From: Promethearchaeota archaeon
GTDB lineage: Archaea; Asgardarchaeota; Lokiarchaeia; Sigyniarchaeales; SOKP01
NCBI GenBank assembly: GCA_048938005.1
Contig: JBHLMQ010000008.1
Span: 17,509-81,508, forward strand
Reading direction: 5' to 3'
Length of the DNA: 64,000 nt
Positions 10,114-45,899 of this stretch are shown here, one piece after another (position 1 is the first letter of the stretch; each line of letters opens with the position of its first letter). Made by a program: the position numbers and the translations under genes. Below the pieces are notes generated by a model. That model saw only the letters and a program-made list of their open reading frames with translations. It did no database searches and was not told the DNA's origin.

Positions 10114-11178
10114 ATGAATTATTATACCAAAGATACATTACTCTCTGCAGTTGGAAATAGTACTAAGCTAATTGAATTGAATTCTGATGAAGCAACTATT
10201 ATAATATCAGAATATGGTGGACGAGTTTTAGGTTTTTTTCCAAAGCAGGATTGCTATAGTTTATTATGGATAAATCCAAAAATTAGAAAAATAATAAAAA
10301 CAAGAAATAGGGCAATTGGGGGAGACAGATATTGGATAAGTCCTGAACGAGATTTCTTTTATAAAGATCCGGAAAATTTTAGAGATTGGTTTTGTGCTAG
10401 TGGATTAGATCCTGCTAATTATGAAATTCTTGGTAGTAATGAATTTTCTTGTTCAGTTTCAAGCAATTTATTCATTACTAATATGAGAACAAAACAAGGA
10501 TACCAAGGAGAAATTACAAGACAATTTAGATTAATAAATGAAACGTATCAAACGGATTTATCTTATTGTGGAGTAGAAATTCTTGATGATTGTGTATTTT
10601 ATAGACCAGATCTTAAAATAAATGGGTGGAATTTAGCTACAATTATAAGTGGTGGTCCAGAGAATCCAGGTACAGTATTAGTCCACACTAAATCTAACCC
10701 TAAACCACTCTCATATTTTCGAACTATTCCGGAAGATCGTTTGAAGGTTAAAGAAAATTACATAGCATTTAAGGTTGATGTAGATGATATTTATAAGTTA
10801 GCTATTAGACCTGAAGATATTGATTTTTCAAGACCAGCTAAAATAGGCTATATACTTAAAATGCCTGATAATGGAGATTATGGATTTTTAGTCAAACTTT
10901 CGGATGATATTGCAAGAACTCAAAATGAATGTTTTGATGTAGCTCGAGACAATCCTGATTCTGAGATAGGAGTTATTCAATCATATAATTCTGAGTCACC
11001 AGAGAAACAATTCTTGAATTATGGAGAAATTGAACTCCAATTGAACCAATTTGAAACAATTGATAATGCCTCTCATGGAAAAGCTAAACATCAACTTTTT
11101 GGATATATTGGAACTAAAGATGAGATTTTAGGTGTGGTTGAAAAATATCTTGGAATTGTAAATCCACATTTATTTTGA
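10114..11178 (+). CDS. Hypothetical protein, possibly galactose-mutarotase-like beta-sandwich
   Basis: Long clean ORF; YGGRVLG and GGDRYWISPE motifs; function not recognised. Confidence 0.5.
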   Translation: MNYYTKDTLLSAVGNSTKLIELNSDEATIIISEYGGRVLGFFPKQDCYSLLWINPKIRKIIKTRNRAIGGDRYWISPERDFFYKDPENFRDWFCASGLDPANYEILGSNEFSCSVSSNLFITNMRTKQGYQGEITRQFRLINETYQTDLSYCGVEILDDCVFYRPDLKINGWNLATIISGGPENPGTVLVHTKSNPKPLSYFRTIPEDRLKVKENYIAFKVDVDDIYKLAIRPEDIDFSRPAKIGYILKMPDNGDYGFLVKLSDDIARTQNECFDVARDNPDSEIGVIQSYNSESPEKQFLNYGEIELQLNQFETIDNASHGKAKHQLFGYIGTKDEILGVVEKYLGIVNPHLF

Positions 11179-11849: not shown

Positions 11850-13028
11850 ATGAAAAATAATTCGAAATATATAAAATATTTTTTAGTAATAATTATAGGG
11901 ATATTAACACTAGGTTTTTTCTTGGGCTTATCGGTGTTAAGAAATAATGATTATTCAAAAAATGAAGATATAACCTCAATCAAATCCAGTGATGGGACAA
12001 TTACAATTTACGACTACAATCCGTATGGGACTTTATTTGGAAGTAGTGCGCTTACTCACGGTGAACAAGAATATTTTGAATGGAGCATTTCTACTCTATA
12101 TGGCCCAGGATTCACATGGTATATTATGAATAATACAGATTTTGTGAATTTGGTTGCATTTCAACCTCAATGGCGCACTCGTGGGAATTTCTCCTATACT
12201 GAGCTTATTTCAGATGAGGAGGTATCAGCCTCAGGAATTTTCTATCCTCATTATTCGGCTCAATGGTGGCTTGTCGCAATAAATCATTGGTTTGGCTATA
12301 ATTGTTCGGCTTATTATACAGATTTTTGGTTGGATGATTTTATTACTGTTACTGCACCTACAAGTACTAGTTCTTGGTCAGTAGGTACATCTTACAATAT
12401 TGATTGGACATGGGGTGGTGATTTTGATTATGTCAATATTGACCTTTATCACGATGGTAATTTTTTGAGAAGTATTGTCAACAATACTCAAAATGATGGT
12501 TCTTATCTATGGAATATTCCCAGTGACATTTCATTATACGACGATCTATACCAAGTGAATGTATCTAATAGCGATTTTACAAATACTTCTGATATCAGTG
12601 ATGCATATTTTGAAATCATAGAAGGCACTATTACCGTAACAAGCCCTTCTATTACCGATTCATGGGAAACAGAAACGAGTCATTCCATCACATGGACATC
12701 AACAGGTTCTATTACAGATGTAAAGATTGAACTCTTTAAGAATAATATTTTTGAGTTGGAAATTGTTTCAAGTACACCTAACGATGGTAGCTTTCCTTGG
12801 ATTATTCCTTCAGGGCTCGATAATTCTACACAGTATCAAGTAAAAATTACAGATGTATCAAATTCTCTTATTAATGATTATAGCGATTATTTTGAGATAT
12901 ATACTGAACCTTCTACGTCTGGACAAACTACAATTCCCGGGTATGATTTAATGATATTAATTGGCACTTCAATTATAAGCATAATAGGATTAACATATTT
13001 TTTGTATAATAGGAAAAAAAGTAAGTAA
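11850..13028 (+). CDS. Cell-surface protein with two Ser/Thr-rich (Kre9/KNH-like) Ig-type repeats and IPGY-type (Loki-CTERM-like) anchor
   Basis: N-terminal signal/TM; repeats ITVTxP...W...Y.I.WT...NDGSxxWxIP; C-terminal IPGYDLMILIG + TM + RKKSK. Confidence 0.8.
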   Translation: MKNNSKYIKYFLVIIIGILTLGFFLGLSVLRNNDYSKNEDITSIKSSDGTITIYDYNPYGTLFGSSALTHGEQEYFEWSISTLYGPGFTWYIMNNTDFVNLVAFQPQWRTRGNFSYTELISDEEVSASGIFYPHYSAQWWLVAINHWFGYNCSAYYTDFWLDDFITVTAPTSTSSWSVGTSYNIDWTWGGDFDYVNIDLYHDGNFLRSIVNNTQNDGSYLWNIPSDISLYDDLYQVNVSNSDFTNTSDISDAYFEIIEGTITVTSPSITDSWETETSHSITWTSTGSITDVKIELFKNNIFELEIVSSTPNDGSFPWIIPSGLDNSTQYQVKITDVSNSLINDYSDYFEIYTEPSTSGQTTIPGYDLMILIGTSIISIIGLTYFLYNRKKSK

Positions 13029-40259: not shown

Positions 40260-41449
40260 AATTGACATCAGAAGAGCAAGAAATGCTGGATGGCAAGTAT
40301 GGAAAAGCTACCAAGAAGTCTATGGAAATTTTAACTACACTAGGTGATATATTTGATGCTGAAAACATGGTTGAGGTTTATGGAGTCCAGATAGCTGGTG
40401 TTTCCTATGCAAATCTAGGTGAAGCGGGATTAGAATTTTTAAATGAAATGGCAGAAGATGGTAAGGTTAGAGTTTTAACGACTTTGAATCCAGCAGGAAT
40501 GGATCGTGAAAATTGGAAAGCTTTAGGGATAGATGAAGAATTTGCTAAAAATCAGAATCGCGCAATTGATGCTTTTGCTAAAATGGGTATAATTACAACA
40601 TGTTCTTGTACTCCATATTTAATTGGAAATGCTCCACACTTCGGTCAACATCTCGCATGGGCTGAAAGTAGTGCTGTATGTTATGCAAACTCAGTTATTG
40701 GTGCTAGAACAAACCGTGAGGGCGGCCCAAGTGCTTTAGCGTCAGCCATTACAGGAAAAACACCAAAATATGGTTATCATTTGGATGAAAATCGGTATGG
40801 GGAAGTTTTAGTAAAAGTTAACACTCACATTAAAGGTACAGACGAATTTGGGGTATTAGGAAAAATAATTGGAGATAAATTGGTCGAACTGGGAAAGAAA
40901 ATACCGTATATTACAGGAGTTCCTTCTGCTACAGTTGAAGAGCTAAAATCATTTTGTGCGTCTGTTGCGACTTACGGTGGAACAGCATTATTCCATATGG
41001 AAGGAATTACTCCAGAATATAATAAATATCCTACTCCAAGTGAAATAATATTTGAAATTAATCAAGATGATATAGATAAAACACGATTGGAACTTATTGA
41101 TGATGTTATTGAAATAGATTTTGTTAGTATAGGGTGTCCTCATGCTTCAATTCACGAAATCGCTAAGATTGCGAGCTTATTGAAGGGAAAGAAAGTAAAA
41201 AAAGAATTTTGGATTACAACTGCACGACCTACTAAAAGAATTGCTGATGAAGCGGGTTACTCAAAAATAATAGAAGATGCAGGAGCGAAATTTGCGGCAG
41301 ATACTTGCTGTGTCGTTGCTCCAATTAAGGGACGTTTCAAAGGTATGATGGTGGATTCAGCAAAAGCATGTTATTATGGTCGGGCTAAAAATAAATTTAA
41401 AATCACAATTGGTTCAGTTGAGAAATGCGTGGGGGAGGCAACAAAATGA
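40256..41449 (+). CDS. Aconitase X large subunit (probable phosphomevalonate dehydratase)
   Basis: CSCTPY, WAESSA, GARTNREGG, GCPH, DTCCVVAP; 4-nt overlap with the UbiD gene. Confidence 0.92.
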   Translation: MKLTSEEQEMLDGKYGKATKKSMEILTTLGDIFDAENMVEVYGVQIAGVSYANLGEAGLEFLNEMAEDGKVRVLTTLNPAGMDRENWKALGIDEEFAKNQNRAIDAFAKMGIITTCSCTPYLIGNAPHFGQHLAWAESSAVCYANSVIGARTNREGGPSALASAITGKTPKYGYHLDENRYGEVLVKVNTHIKGTDEFGVLGKIIGDKLVELGKKIPYITGVPSATVEELKSFCASVATYGGTALFHMEGITPEYNKYPTPSEIIFEINQDDIDKTRLELIDDVIEIDFVSIGCPHASIHEIAKIASLLKGKKVKKEFWITTARPTKRIADEAGYSKIIEDAGAKFAADTCCVVAPIKGRFKGMMVDSAKACYYGRAKNKFKITIGSVEKCVGEATK

Positions 41450-41838
41450 AGTTGGAAGGAAGAAAAATTTATAAGGGTACTGCTAAGGCGGAAGCAATCG
41501 TTACCAATGACGGTATTTCATTTTATGGTGGTGTTGATCCTGATACAGGGAAAGTAGTTGAAGTTGGACATGAACTTGAAGGTCAGTCGGTAACAGGAAA
41601 AGTTTTAGTATTTCCAACAGGCAAGGGGTCTACAGTAGGATCTTATACCATGTATAGAATGAAAAAGAATAACATGGCTCCTGCTGCAATCGTCAATAAA
41701 CAAATCGATACAATTGTTGCAGTAGGGTGTATTATCAGTGAAATTCCTTGCGTGGATAAAATTGATATTAGCTATATAAAAACTGGACAAGTTGTTATTG
41801 TTAATGGTTTAGAAGGAACTATAGAAATAATAGATTAG
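41446..41838 (+). CDS. Aconitase X small (swivel) subunit
   Basis: ISFYGGVDP, GKGSTVGS; ATGA overlap at 41446. Confidence 0.92.
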   Translation: MKLEGRKIYKGTAKAEAIVTNDGISFYGGVDPDTGKVVEVGHELEGQSVTGKVLVFPTGKGSTVGSYTMYRMKKNNMAPAAIVNKQIDTIVAVGCIISEIPCVDKIDISYIKTGQVVIVNGLEGTIEIID

Positions 41839-41854
41839 TTTCATTTTAGAATTT

Positions 41855-42865
41855 ATGAAATCTTCTGCAATTGCTCATTCAAATATTGCGCTAATAAAAT
41901 ATTGGGGTAATTGGAACAAGGTGTCCCCAGAACTAAATATTCCTTTAAATGATAGCGTAAGCATGACGAAATATGGGTTATCGGAAAATACTCACTTAAA
42001 AGCTCATACTACAATAGAATTTTCAGAAGATTTCAAGGAAAATGAAGCAAAATTAAATAATAATCTATTAAAAGGAAGAGATATGGAAAGGATTCTAAAA
42101 ATCATTAATCCATTAAGAAAATTAAAAAAAATTGATTACAAATTCAAAATGATGAGTTTTAATGACTTTCCTACCCAAGCAGGTTTGGCATCTTCCGCAG
42201 CGGGTTTTGCAGCACTTACTATTGCGGCAGCAAAAGCATTAAATTTAGATTTAACGCAAAGGGAATTATCTACATTCGCAAGATTAGGTTCTGGTTCTGC
42301 AGCACGCTCTATCCACGGAGGATTTGTATATTGGCATCGGGGATTCTCCCATGAAACCTCCTATGCAGAACAAATATGTGGTCCAAATGATTTTGACATG
42401 GATGCAATTATTGCCATAATAGATGAAGGAAGAAAGGATGTAACATCTGATTTAGGTCATGAATCGGCAAAGACAAGCATATTTAATACAGTACGAGTGA
42501 AAAAATCGCATGAACAAGCTGAAGAAATCAAAAAAGCAATTCTAGATGATGATTTTAAGAAAGTTGGAACAATTGCTGAAAAAAATTGTATATTTATGCA
42601 TGCAGTAATGATGACATCTAGACCAGCTTTATTTTATTGGAATCCAACTACTTTAAGAGTAATAAAGAAAGTGCTAAATATTCGAAAATCTGAAAATTTA
42701 GATTGCTTCTTTACCATCGATGCAGGACCGAATGTACACTGTCTATGCAGACCAGAAATTAATAAACATGTTCAAAATATCTTAGAAAATATTGAAGGTG
42801 TCGAAAAAACTATTCTTGTAAAGCCTGCTAATGATTCTTCTACGACAAATAAGCATTTGTTTTAA
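41855..42865 (+). CDS. mvaD: GHMP-family mevalonate (di)phosphate decarboxylase
   Basis: SNIALIKYWG, AGLASSAAG, RLGSGSAARS, TIDAGPNVH. Confidence 0.88.
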   Translation: MKSSAIAHSNIALIKYWGNWNKVSPELNIPLNDSVSMTKYGLSENTHLKAHTTIEFSEDFKENEAKLNNNLLKGRDMERILKIINPLRKLKKIDYKFKMMSFNDFPTQAGLASSAAGFAALTIAAAKALNLDLTQRELSTFARLGSGSAARSIHGGFVYWHRGFSHETSYAEQICGPNDFDMDAIIAIIDEGRKDVTSDLGHESAKTSIFNTVRVKKSHEQAEEIKKAILDDDFKKVGTIAEKNCIFMHAVMMTSRPALFYWNPTTLRVIKKVLNIRKSENLDCFFTIDAGPNVHCLCRPEINKHVQNILENIEGVEKTILVKPANDSSTTNKHLF

Positions 42866-43026
42866 TACTACTTAAAATATTTATTCTAATATTTCATTCA
42901 ACTTATTTTATCCAACTTTTTAAATAAAGTCAAAAATTATTTAATTAAGTAATAGATTAAGTTATTTTTATAAATTTGAATTTTTTCAAATTCTATTATG
43001 TCATACGAGTATAATTGGTGAAGAAT

Positions 43027-43993
43027 TTGGGATCTGGAATAGGATATGGAAAGACCATACTTTTTGGCGAAATTTATTTCCCATTTCAGGAATAAACGCA
43101 ATCATTTTGTTGTATATGGCCTTCCAGCAATTGTATCAGCTTTAGGATCTTTTACAACCGCGGAAGTTAAAATTCTTAAGGGTAATGGTTGGACGGTTGA
43201 TGATCAAAGACCTGCAACACCCGGTTATAAAAAAAAGAAATTTAATGAAGCAAAAAAATCAATTAAAAATATAATTGAGTATTTAAATATAGATATAGAG
43301 AATCAAAAACTTGAAATAAAATTTGCTGGGGACTTAATCGCCGCGAGTGGAGTAGGTGCTTCAGCAGCTCAATGTACATCTCTTTCTCGAGCTTTAAATA
43401 ACACATTTAATCTTAATCTAAACAACGAAAAGATAAACGAAGCTGCCTATGAAGGAGAGAAAGCATACCATGGAACCCCTTCGGGCATCGATAACACAGC
43501 CTCTACTTATGGTGGTATGATTTGGTTTGTAAAAAATTTGAGTGGGGGAAAAAATACTATGGATCTTCTGCAATCTCCAAAAAAGATACCTTTAGTAATA
43601 GCAAATTCAGGAATAACAGCTTCAACAACAGAAGTTGTTGCCGATGTTCGACGTTTAAAGAAAGAAAATCCAGAAAAATTTGACAAAATCTTCAAGAAAT
43701 ATGAAAAATTAGCAGAAGAGGCAAAAAAAGCCTTGATTGAAGGTGATATCACTACTATTGGTAATCTAATGAATCAAAATCATAAATTACTACAAGATAT
43801 TACGGTATCTGGAGAGATTAATGATAAACTAATTGATATATCCTTACAAAATGGAGCTATTGGTGCTAAAATGACAGGAACAGGGCGGGGTGGCTTGGTT
43901 ATAGCGCTAACAGAAAATGAGAAACTACAAGATAAGATTGCCAAAGCAATTGAAAAAGAAGGATATGATGCCTGGAAAACCATGATTGGATGA
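43027..43993 (+). CDS. mvk: Mevalonate kinase, interrupted by a 31-nt insert (join 43027..43071,43103..43993; 311 aa)
   Basis: GGTGA SD and TTG start give MGSGIGYGKTILFGE; after the insert HFVVYG continues; SGVGASAA, HGTPSGID, GAKMTGTGRGG. Confidence 0.9.
43072..43102 (+). other. Candidate bulge-helix-bulge intron / palindromic insert in mvk
   Basis: ATTTATTTCCCATTTCAGGAATAAACGCAAT separates GAA (Glu) from CAT (His), carries an in-frame TAA and shifts the frame. Confidence 0.7.
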
Positions 43994-45899
43994 GTGTGAG
44001 TTAAAATTGAAAAATATTAATGAGATAATTCTGTTAAAATTAGGCGGTAGTATATTAACTGATAAGAATAAACCTTTTTCTCTTAGAGAAGAGATTTTAG
44101 AAAAATGTCTTAATCAAATTATTGAAAGTAAAAAACCAATTATTTTAATCCATGGAGGTGGATCATTCGGGCATCCAATTGCTAAAAAATATCAAATTTC
44201 TCAAGGATTAAATAAATCTGTTAAGGATCAGATAATAGGGCTTTCCAAAACCCATGAAACTATGAATAATTTTAATTCTATAATAATAAAGAAATTATTA
44301 GATAAAGGATATCCAGCAATTTCGATTCAACCTTCTAGTATTTTTATAAAAGATTTTAATCAAATAAATATAAAAACTATAGAACCAATTGAAAAATTGC
44401 TTGAACTTAGAATAATGCCCGTTCTATATGGTGATATTATTTTAAGTTGGGATTCTTATTTTTCAATTCTTTCAGGAGATCAAATTATTTTAAAATTATG
44501 CGAGAAAATTCAAAATTTTAAGATTTCAAAAGTTATTTTTGCTATTGAAAAGGATGGCATATACATTGAAGATAATGGAAAAACTAAACTTGCTTTAAAA
44601 TTAAAAACCAAAGATTTAGCTGAATTAAAATTAGCCAACTTAGATCAAAAAATAGATGTAACTGGAGGTATAAAAGGGAAACTTGAAACTATTAAAGAGA
44701 TTATAAATTTCAATATCCCTGTTCAAATTATTAATGGGCTTAAAAATAAAAATATCCTTAAAGCATTAAATAACCAATATTTAGAATGCACTAATATTGA
44801 AGTATCTCCCGATGAAAAATTTGTTAGAAAACTGTACAATAGGAAGATAGAACACATTAAAATACCTTTAGAGTATAATGTTCAACATAGAAAGAATTAT
44901 TTTGATGATATTAATCTAATTCATTATCCCCTCCCAGAGATTGAATTAGATGACATTAATCTTTCTGTAGATTTCTTTAAAAAGAAAGTATCCGCTCCTA
45001 TATGTATAGCCGCAATTACGGGAGGGCATGAAATTTCCAAAGCAATTAATAATATCTTAGCAAACGCAGCAAAGACAGAAAATATTATTATGAGTGTTGG
45101 TAGTCAGCGAATAGGATTAGAGGATCCCTCTACTATTGATTCTTTTAAAATTGTTCGTGATGTCGCACCCTCTATTCCTGTAATAGGAAATTTAGGAATA
45201 GGACAGATATGCGATCCCGATTTCAATTTAGATGTTTTTAAAAAATGCATTGAAATGATTAATGCGGATGTTATGGCTATACACTTCAATGCTTTACATG
45301 AACTAGTTCAAAGGGAAGGAAACATTTCCTATAAAAATTTTGAAGAAAAATTCAAAGAAATAAGAAAAAATTTGAAGATTCCTATTATAGCAAAAGAGGT
45401 TGGCACAGGCTTTAATAACGAGTTGGCTTTAAAGCTAGATTTACTCGGATTTGATGGATTTGATGTTGGAGGAACAGGAGGTACTAGTTTTGCTGCAATA
45501 GAGTCAATACGTGATGAAGATAGCTATGAAGTTTACACTCGGAAAATAGCAGAGACTTTTAGAGAATGGGGCATTCCAACACCAATTAGTATTATGAATG
45601 TCAGAAAAGTATCTAAAAAATTAATTATAGCAACTGGAGGTTTACGATCTGGTATAGATATTGCCAAATCAATTGTTTTAGGTGCTGATATTGGGGGTTT
45701 TGCATTTAAATTTTTAAAGACAGCATGGAGAGACTATAAAAACAACACACAGTCGAATACACTCAAAGAAATAAAAACTTTGAAGCAAGAATTAAGATCT
45801 TCCATGTGGTTGATGAATATGGATAATCTTAAAAAATTAAAAAGCAATAACGACAAAAGGGTATTAGTGGGCGAATTGTATCAATGGGTCAATCAATAA
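43986..45899 (+). CDS. Fused isopentenyl phosphate kinase + type 2 IPP isomerase (IPK-Fni)
   Basis: LKLGGSILTDK, HGGGSFGH, SGD, DVTGGI (IPK); RKIEHI, ITGG, VGSQR, AKEVG, GGTSFAAIE, ATGGLRSG (IDI-2). Confidence 0.92.
   Translation: MDECELKLKNINEIILLKLGGSILTDKNKPFSLREEILEKCLNQIIESKKPIILIHGGGSFGHPIAKKYQISQGLNKSVKDQIIGLSKTHETMNNFNSIIIKKLLDKGYPAISIQPSSIFIKDFNQINIKTIEPIEKLLELRIMPVLYGDIILSWDSYFSILSGDQIILKLCEKIQNFKISKVIFAIEKDGIYIEDNGKTKLALKLKTKDLAELKLANLDQKIDVTGGIKGKLETIKEIINFNIPVQIINGLKNKNILKALNNQYLECTNIEVSPDEKFVRKLYNRKIEHIKIPLEYNVQHRKNYFDDINLIHYPLPEIELDDINLSVDFFKKKVSAPICIAAITGGHEISKAINNILANAAKTENIIMSVGSQRIGLEDPSTIDSFKIVRDVAPSIPVIGNLGIGQICDPDFNLDVFKKCIEMINADVMAIHFNALHELVQREGNISYKNFEEKFKEIRKNLKIPIIAKEVGTGFNNELALKLDLLGFDGFDVGGTGGTSFAAIESIRDEDSYEVYTRKIAETFREWGIPTPISIMNVRKVSKKLIIATGGLRSGIDIAKSIVLGADIGGFAFKFLKTAWRDYKNNTQSNTLKEIKTLKQELRSSMWLMNMDNLKKLKSNNDKRVLVGELYQWVNQ

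Follow-up and report, generated by a model that had tools for sequence, protein, structure and literature searches.

The stretch of DNA analysed here, which we call the window, comprises 64,000 nucleotides of contig C60 (JBHLMQ010000008.1) in a 3.72-Mb metagenome-assembled draft genome of a Promethearchaeota archaeon (GCA_048938005.1; 101 contigs, 7.2% contamination). It carries a mevalonate kinase gene whose reading frame is broken close to the 5' end by an insert of 31 nt. The part upstream of the insert, exon 1 (43027..43071, + strand), has 15 codons, beginning with a TTG start that is followed by GSGIGYGKTILFGE, and contains the conserved N-terminal motif; its DNA opens with TTG GGA TCT and closes with GGC GAA, and its translation, with TTG read as Met, is LGSGIGYGKTILFGE. 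The insert, our proposed intron (43072..43102, + strand), has a TAA at 43093-43095 in the frame of exon 1, and exon 2 (43103..43993, + strand) resumes in a different frame with HFVVYG and runs for 296 codons to a TGA stop (43991-43993). Exon 1, the insert with its stop and the resumption in another frame are as claimed in the original prediction, which had been made from the sequence alone. The count of open reading frames (ORFs) also agrees with its unspliced product, which starts at TTG 43027 and takes up 22 of the 26 aa of an ORF beginning at 43015, and only the spacer between the TTG and an upstream Shine-Dalgarno-like GGTGA (43017..43021, + strand) has to be corrected, from 6 nt to 5 nt. 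We consider it very probable that the insert is a relaxed intron of the bulge-helix-bulge (BHB) type, the kind processed by the archaeal endonuclease, and that it is removed from the pre-mRNA by EndA together with RtcB.

The product of exon 2 (P0001) matches TIGR00549 with 214.8 bits (cut-off 163), starting at profile position 11 of 276. In an intron-free ortholog of 311 aa (P0002) the match starts at position 3, and the profile positions absent from P0001 are those encoded by 43027-43071. The N-terminus of P0002 aligns with the solved mevalonate kinase 2hfs, with GYGK.ILFGEHFV conserved (E 1.3e-76). Gene callers pick a 315-aa ORF from an ATG at 43046, which gives a false N-terminus and is recorded as a called protein.

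At this site, 36 of the 63 related species-level sequences carry an insert of 30-31 nt, and from the remaining 27 it is exactly absent. Within the genus, mevalonate kinase was found at E ≤ 1e-60 in 42 of 54 genomes and the junction was read in 41, one match consisting of the C-terminal half only; 26 of the 41 junctions carry the insert (24 with 31 nt, two with 30 nt) and 15 read GGN GAR CAY TTY without interruption. Scanning a single genome for each species yielded 42 loci, of which two lacked the N-terminus and were dropped, 18 were duplicates and 22 were new, the insert being present in 10 of the new loci and absent in 12. Two of the newly found intron-bearing orthologs are only 70-72% identical in protein, and for this reason the insert may predate the genus. 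Two relatives (L071 and L079) already have the 18-mer of the spliced junction in their DNA. Searched against the genome with nhmmer, the intron alignment hit mevalonate kinase and no other locus (E 1e-15, with the second-ranking match at 0.14), and a repeated or mobile element was rejected on this ground.

On a tree of 40 exon-2 DNA sequences, which has a midpoint root only and from which L053 was left out as too short, presence of the insert requires six changes, at least four of them forced by well-supported branches; shuffled presence gave a mean of 12.4 changes, and none of 500 shuffles was as low. Eight intron-free sequences form one basal group, and further intron-free genes are nested inside the intron-bearing clade. 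Because of this nesting, which demands at least four to six gains or losses, the intron, as judged from the tree, most likely arose once in the family and was afterwards precisely lost on several occasions.

Both exons appear to be in use. Exon 2 is free of stops in all 62 sequences (L053, being partial, was left out), and its pairwise dN/dS is 0.108 in 35 intron-bearing genes (587 of 595 pairs usable) versus 0.101 in 27 intron-free genes (339 of 351 pairs). Signs of relaxed selection, in the form of stops, frameshifts or raised dN/dS, were looked for in exon 2 of these 62 orthologs and not encountered. The exon-1 peptide xGxGKGYGKTILFGE is conserved in all 36 intron-bearing and 27 intron-free sequences. 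The position of the start codon and a Shine-Dalgarno-like site are retained in 36 of 36 intron-bearing genes; across the 63 orthologs, this site takes the form of GGTGA or GGAGGT, 5-9 nt ahead of the aligned start codon.

We aligned the region around the insert for the 36 intron-bearing sequences, of which 35 are distinct and many are close kin, in 81 columns (column c corresponding to window position 43046+c). The fold proposed from this alignment is built around a central helix H, in which GGCG at the end of exon 1 (43066..43069, + strand) pairs with CGCA shortly before the 3' end of the insert (43097..43100, + strand; from RNAalifold and covariation). The 5' strand continues into a three-nucleotide bulge AAA (43070..43072, + strand) with the predicted cut at 43071/43072, and an intron hairpin h' (43073..43096, + strand) stacks on H, with basal pairs 43073-75/43094-96 and an apical stem that has two possible registers. 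The 3' cut region ATC (43101..43103, + strand), with its predicted cut at 43102/43103, has H on one side and only the pair U43065-A43104 on the other. Farther out, a distal exon-exon helix between 43048..43059 (+ strand) and 43115..43125 (+ strand) encloses the intron, with 95.7% of cells paired; C43120 forms its one A.C mismatch in the window. The pairings named in the original prediction are all present, namely GGCG with CGCA, the AAA bulge, TTTATT with AATAAA, the ATC bulge and CCATA (43055-59) with TATGG (43115-19).

Unconstrained RNAalifold returned 43067-69 paired with 43097-99, 43070-72 unpaired, the hairpin h' and the distal exon-exon helix, with consensus columns 54-68 unpaired. Over the 36 sequences 90.2% of cells are paired, versus 39-52% when the partners are slid by 1-3 columns. 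Double changes occur in eight pairs, a count inflated by kinship among the sequences, compared to a mean of 4.6 in shuffles (5 of 500 reach eight) and at most three in the slid controls. Among the 35 distinct sequences, the pair 43068-43098, whose first position is a synonymous third codon position, is C-G in 31, U-A in three and U-G in one, and is never unpaired; 43067-43099 is G-C in 33 and G-U in two, 43069-43097 is G-C in all 35, and 43066-43100 is G.A in 26 and G.U in nine. The basal pairs of h' are 95.2% paired, with double changes from U-A to C-G via U-G and from U-A to A-U (43074-43095 is U-A in 28, U-G in five and C-G in one), and compensatory changes are seen at all five apical pairs.

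The exon flanks carry a constraint of their own. In intron-bearing genes, the third-codon-position diversity of the last eight exon-1 codons is 0.20 versus 0.44 in the gene body, whereas the corresponding values for intron-free genes are 0.51 and 0.43. The Thr codon is ACC in 31 of the 35 distinct intron-bearing sequences, its C pairing with G43118, and ACU, forming U.G, in four; it is ACC in only one of 27 intron-free sequences. Part of this constraint reflects kinship; the difference between the flanks and the remainder of the same genes, however, is independent of it.

The cut rule can be read from the tRNA genes of the same genome. In the tRNA-Ser(tga) intron, (CTTG)AG/A ... (CAAG)TT/A, with helix strands in parentheses and cuts as slashes, both strands are cut 2 nt past a helix of four pairs. 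Several other tRNA introns of the genome have a central helix with one mismatch (three of four pairs), and a tRNA-His intron on contig C55, identified with ARAGORN, resembles the mevalonate kinase insert in combining a long inner helix with next to no outer helix. Applied to (GGCG)AA/A ... (CGCA)AT/C, the rule excises exactly 43072-43102 and gives the junction GE/HF. This cut pair has the best inner-helix score among the frame-restoring pairs near the insert (3/4 central and 8 inner pairs), and its removal is the sole frame-restoring choice that yields the sequence of the intron-free ortholog, ...ILFGEHFVVYG.... In 400,000 random trials for this genome, at least 3/4 central and at least 8 inner pairs occurred by chance at fixed boundaries in 0.145%; when the demand is lowered to 3 or more central and 6 or more inner pairs, the value is 0.66%. 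Cutting between bulge nucleotides 2 and 3 to obtain a 311-aa enzyme, as originally proposed, is therefore in accord both with the intron-free ortholog P0002 and with the rule followed by the tRNA introns.

The enzymes are encoded in the genome. Two paralogs of EndA, with lengths of 198 and 205 aa, match TIGR00324 at 116 bits and at 88 bits, the lower-scoring one also matching the β-subunit model; from these matches, one paralog looks like an α subunit and the pair like that expected for an (αβ)2 enzyme. RtcB is present with 568 bits. Asgard archaea are described in parts of Kaneta et al. 2018 (PMC5829648) as having an (αβ)2 EndA with an insert in the L1 loop and broad specificity; carried over by analogy, the L1 loop and the specificity would allow the host endonuclease to accept relaxed motifs. 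In the 3.7 Mb of the genome, ARAGORN found only nine intron-free tRNA genes and 12-21 with introns, and probably missed many tRNAs. These counts fit a preprint which describes Asgard tRNA genes as heavily interrupted (bioRxiv 10.64898/2026.10.13.758758).

Comparison of orthologs brought further inserts to light. We compared 1,833,063 nt of a relative whose mevalonate kinase is intron-free (G041) with the genome of the window by tblastn of open frames in both directions, which gave good matches for 1,871 and 1,805 frames and recovered the mevalonate kinase insert as a control. Seven more inserts of 28-32 nt with the same architecture were found, in six other gene families (named according to Pfam). 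One of them, insert M, lies in the genome of the window but outside the window itself, in a gene for a MoxR-type AAA ATPase (contig C97:181286-181313, - strand, L163; 28 nt; (CGCG)AA/A ... (CACG)AA/A); it follows codon ~22, forms a hairpin of seven pairs, is missing in 49 of the 51 orthologs of the genus and is shared with G019. Five are in G041 and absent from the orthologs in the genome of the window: insert P in proteasome α (C4:22685-22713, L153; 29 nt; (CTCA)AA/A ... (TGAG)AC/A), insert Q in an NAD-dependent epimerase just before the YDESK motif (C4:82075-82105, L148/L156 region; 31 nt; (ACGT)AA/A ... (ACGC)AT/A), insert T in a member of the ubiquitin-conjugating-enzyme family (E2-like; C30 ~11079-11109, L273; 31 nt; (CCAG)AA/A ... 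(CTGG)AC/A), insert U in ribosomal protein uL11 (C57 ~12438-12465, L300; 28 nt; (GCAT)AA/A ... (ATGC)AT/A) and insert V in a Rad51/RadA-family paralog (C33 ~1018-1048, L276; 31 nt; (GGGA)AT/A ... (TCTC)AA/A). The last is a second insert in proteasome α, found in G049 (L255, G049:C17:41400-42800; 32 nt; (GTAC)TA/A ... (GTAC)TA/A).

The 5' bulge AA/A occurs in five of these seven inserts (six of eight counting mevalonate kinase), and in all seven the best BHB cut pair restores the ortholog protein, with 21-25 of 23-27 residues agreeing, or 11 of 26 for the paralogous V. For insert Q, the BHB cut gives HVNPVGPRS, which is better than the HVNLV of a naive alignment; this insert is found in five genus genomes, with the outermost pair of H being A.C or A-U. 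Insert P is found in three genus genomes with a covarying hairpin. In G049, where proteasome α holds two inserts, a direct repeat of 12 nt, AGAGTACTAATC, borders the 32-nt insert on either side, and the palindromic GTAC of this repeat supplies both strands of the central helix, which hints at an origin of mini-introns by local duplication. Judged from the pattern of matches, G041 alone having been read, uL11 looks interrupted in 24 of 52 genus genomes and, beyond the genus but within its family, in 13 of 35 genomes, whereas no interruption shows in any of the 19 genomes matched in the order's three other families; in the same match pattern, the apparent interruptions lie at differing positions (aa ~16, ~24 and ~33, and an in-frame addition of 33 nt with stops). 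The protein genes of this lineage most likely contain a class of 28-32-nt mini-introns to which the mevalonate kinase insert belongs.

Three other kinds of candidate were set aside: candidate R (G041 contig C21, 25 nt, in an ORF of 112 aa), which has no convincing motif, a 26-nt split on contig C60, which falls within a tRNA region, and inserts as long as 200-250 nt, which are domain differences between paralogs.

Several observations weigh against the proposed splicing. None of the 20 public sequencing runs listed with the locus is on record as RNA. The central helix in the window consists of three Watson-Crick pairs plus G.A, and the 3' cut is almost without an outer helix; these are the weak points that the original prediction had named, and they stand, given the G.A in 26 of 35 sequences and the single U-A pair outside the 3' cut. 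As modelled, the motif is a relaxed HBh' or bulge-helix-loop form, not a canonical two-bulge BHB, although its spacing fits exactly and its 5' part, made up of H, the bulge and h', is well formed. The fold of the window is not significantly more stable than shuffled sequences (76 nt: z -0.40; 81 nt: z -1.45), owing in part to C43120, which disrupts a pair of the distal helix; among seven other species folded, five have z between -3.0 and -5.3. There is also a competing conformer, in which GGCGAAAU pairs with AUUUUGUU of exon 2 (43065-43073 with 43104-43112) and which is the minimum free energy (MFE) structure in the window as well as in four of seven other species folded. The fold with H and the bulges enforced averages -18.0 kcal/mol versus -20.1 for the MFE and equals the MFE in some species, and the compensatory U-A at 43068-43098 speaks for the BHB conformer and against the competing fold. 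The effect of kinship on the covariation counts belongs here as well. Finally, the BHB motif alone carries little information and cannot find such introns in an AT-rich genome. A motif-only scan of the genome at the stringency of the mevalonate kinase insert gave 89,624 hits with 1,036 frame rescues, versus 983-1,035 rescues in eight decoy cut geometries, and a refined scan (AAA bulge, length 24-36, at least six pairs in h') gave 30,673 hits with 1,848 rescues, versus 2,019-2,391 in the decoys. Such scans are uninformative on the number of introns present. The original prediction had suggested scanning the genome for other frameshifted genes with BHB-forming inserts; such genes were found by the comparison of orthologs, while the motif-only scans gave no excess over decoys.

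Four other explanations compete with splicing by EndA. That the insert is an artefact of assembly or sequencing has a negligible probability, for even though the genome is a contaminated draft assembled from a metagenome, the same insert occurs with species-specific substitutions in 36 separately assembled genomes, and contigs from public runs of three studies cover it without a gap, a deletion or a joint (one bridging run may be the source of the assembly itself); the misassembly considered in the original prediction is thereby excluded. We also regard it as very improbable that the gene is a pseudogene, decayed or decaying, or that only the 315-aa ORF from the ATG at 43046, which is what gene callers call, is made while another kinase supplies the activity. 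A candidate for such a kinase exists in a second GHMP kinase of 316 aa (L002, contig C38:30875-31822, N-terminus PGRICLMGDKVDLLG), whose best matches are mevalonate kinase models, but it stays below both curated cut-offs (147.3 against 163.05 and 177.9 against 403), is found in 25 of 54 genus genomes and is absent from 15 of 26 intron-bearing species, several of which are 97-100% complete. In four intron-bearing genomes without this paralog (G001, G003, G005, G023) there was no other match at E ≤ 1e-20, and in the genome of the window no second gene attains the mevalonate kinase cut-offs, so the intact second copy that could have turned the interrupted gene into a pseudogene is missing. The dN/dS of exon 2 equals that of the intron-free genes, exon 1 is intact in its own frame in 36 of 36 sequences, and a protein made from exon 2 alone would be without a start codon in 11 of 36, as the exon-2 frame of these has no ATG, GTG or TTG near its start.

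Of the two remaining explanations, recoding would leave the RNA uncut, the ribosome crossing the insert either by a +1 frameshift or by a bypass as in T4 gene 60, where a short non-coding gap with a hairpin lies within an ORF, matching take-off and landing codons are used and one protein results. A path with a single frameshift is formally open in the window and in 23 other sequences, and the hairpin follows the last sense codon, as in known bypass sites and in the gap of gene 60. We nevertheless consider recoding improbable. No single-frameshift route joins the two frames in 12 of the 36 intron-bearing sequences, five of which have TAA or TAG immediately ahead of the His codon; the two 30-nt inserts are in frame and carry stops; and a frameshift would place about 10 residues within the invariant GEH motif. 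In contrast to gene 60, the matched pair of take-off and landing codons is absent, since the final triplet of the insert is AAT, TAT, AAA, TAA or TAG in the 26 genus sequences and never the take-off codon GAA. From the 12 sequences without a frameshift path, the two in-frame inserts with stops and the 11 sequences without an exon-2 start codon, it follows at the level of sequence that the insert must be removed from the RNA. A self-splicing group I or II intron, or another curated RNA family, had no match over the insert: a search of Rfam with window positions 42900-43300 up to E=1 returned no family and only a chance snoRNA match outside the insert (22 bits against a gathering score of 40), and 31 nt is far below the size of a ribozyme. 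It is also conceivable, though unlikely, that the insert is removed by an activity other than the tRNA-splicing endonuclease, either another nuclease with a ligase or a guide-dependent one, the BHB-like fold being incidental or having another role. EndA cleavage of the insert is a prediction, the motif in the window has only the relaxed form, and all eight inserts fall within 28-32 nt, six of them with an AA/A bulge; EndA is not known to require either feature, which could hint at an extra determinant. Yet in eight of eight inserts the protein-restoring cuts fall 2 nt after a four-pair helix on both strands, the signature spacing of EndA, the chance of such a motif at fixed boundaries is 0.1-0.7%, and most tRNA genes of the same genomes depend on EndA.

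Splicing by EndA and RtcB is thus the explanation we favour, in the relaxed form described above. From the insert and its conservation, the selection on both exons, the covarying structure, the fit to the cut rule and the genes for the enzymes, all of which are observed, together with the seven further inserts, we infer cleavage and ligation of the pre-mRNA; the core of the original proposal, a BHB-type intron in mevalonate kinase, is supported by each of these computational tests, with the motif in its relaxed form. In this mechanism, the terminal GGCG of exon 1 and the CGCA close to the 3' border of the insert would form the four-pair central helix, the three-nucleotide AAA bulge would follow on the 5' strand, and the intron hairpin would stack directly on the central helix, while the longer helix between exon 1 and exon 2 would hold both ends together. 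The heteromeric (αβ)2 splicing endonuclease would then cut 2 nt past the central helix on each strand, and RtcB would join the exons, restoring the GE/HF junction and the 311-aa enzyme; the excised 31-mer would probably be circular. We regard the intron as most likely a tolerated and efficiently removed passenger rather than a switch specific to the pathway, because the insert was precisely lost several times and similar inserts occur in unrelated housekeeping genes. The earlier suggestion that splicing gates isoprenoid synthesis finds no support, and neither does any other regulatory role.

The genes next to mevalonate kinase belong to the same pathway. Upstream lies a gene of the diphosphomevalonate decarboxylase family (41855..42865, + strand; TIGR01240, 247.5 bits), and downstream a fusion of isopentenyl phosphate kinase and type 2 IPP isomerase (43986..45899, + strand; NF040647 over residues 15-271, TIGR02151 over residues 285-621), which is a single ORF of 637 aa and overlaps the final 8 nt of mevalonate kinase. 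In many relatives (L004, L006, L009 and others), mevalonate kinase directly follows a homolog of the 137-aa ORF at 41425-41838 (...GTVEVK stop ATG). In the lineage of the window, the decarboxylase gene and an AT-rich spacer of 160 nt lie between this ORF and mevalonate kinase, and TTG replaces the ATG start. The start position is occupied by ACG (L060, L065, L074, L076, L080, L082, L086) or CTG (L088) in eight orthologs, intron-bearing or not, and in these eight the upstream stop immediately precedes it.

The closest known counterpart is the cbf5 pre-mRNA intron of Crenarchaeota, reportedly described by Watanabe in 2002. It resembles the mevalonate kinase intron in its patchy distribution, explained by one gain and secondary losses, and in a host with a hetero-oligomeric endonuclease of broad specificity, as set out in passages of Yokobori 2009 (PMC2738675). 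It differs in gene and lineage, the present intron being located in mevalonate kinase of Asgard Promethearchaeia at codon 15, inside the catalytic N-terminal motif; in that splicing of cbf5 was shown experimentally, while splicing of mevalonate kinase is deduced; and in being a single case, compared to at least eight such inserts in seven gene families here. In the genome of the window, cbf5 is uninterrupted.

BHB introns of Asgard tRNAs, those of the preprint (10.64898/2026.10.13.758758) and those of the genome of the window, share with the mevalonate kinase intron the four-pair helix, the cuts 2 nt after it, the presumed enzymes, a similar size range and repeated gain and loss. The mevalonate kinase intron differs in that the substrate is an mRNA, that a weak U-A pair and a distant exon-exon helix replace the tRNA stem, and that coding constraints coexist with those of the fold. 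The splicing endonuclease of the euryarchaeon Haloferax volcanii is homodimeric. Its BHB intron in the 5' UTR of HVO_1309 is likewise located in an mRNA substrate of the archaeal splicing endonuclease, but interrupts an untranslated leader, not a reading frame, and its splicing was shown in vivo and in vitro, according to sections of Schwarz et al. 2020 (PMC7714728); the same sections name cbf5 as the only archaeal coding-region BHB intron known at that time. A literature search, covering papers apart from their supplements, returned no report of Asgard mRNA introns or of a BHB intron in mevalonate kinase.

A more distant parallel is the unconventional splicing of HAC1/XBP1 mRNA in eukaryotes, in which a short frame-shifting intron is excised independently of the spliceosome by the nuclease IRE1, as a regulated stress switch. 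The exons are joined there by the tRNA ligase RtcB (PMC8718801). The likeness lies in the short, frame-shifting mRNA intron and in RtcB, the difference in IRE1 and in the regulation, none being indicated here.

If confirmed by RNA data, mevalonate kinase would be the second gene, and the Asgard archaea the second major lineage, with a coding-region BHB intron, and confirmation of the seven further inserts would imply that interruption of mRNAs by introns of the tRNA type can be common within one lineage. At the level of sequence, mini-introns appear common in the protein genes of this Asgard family and invisible to annotation, as gene callers swap the catalytic N-terminus of mevalonate kinase for a false one and thereby introduce hidden errors into pathway reconstructions and protein families. 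We think it somewhat more probable than otherwise that the tRNA-splicing machinery routinely splices mRNAs in this Promethearchaeia family, acting on mini-introns of 28-33 nt that were gained and precisely lost many times and that lie in a variety of protein genes, core genes such as those for ribosomal protein uL11, proteasome α, a RadA paralog and an E2-like enzyme among them; mevalonate kinase would then be the first case to have come into view. Were this true, the predicted proteomes of these genomes would be wrong at every such gene, standard gene calling being blind to mini-introns. The family would then offer a natural system in which enzymatic splicing of mRNAs and interrupted protein genes evolved among prokaryotes closely related to eukaryotes, and in which the repeated gain and precise loss of introns would be open to study with EndA and RtcB, an enzyme pair that eukaryotes still use.

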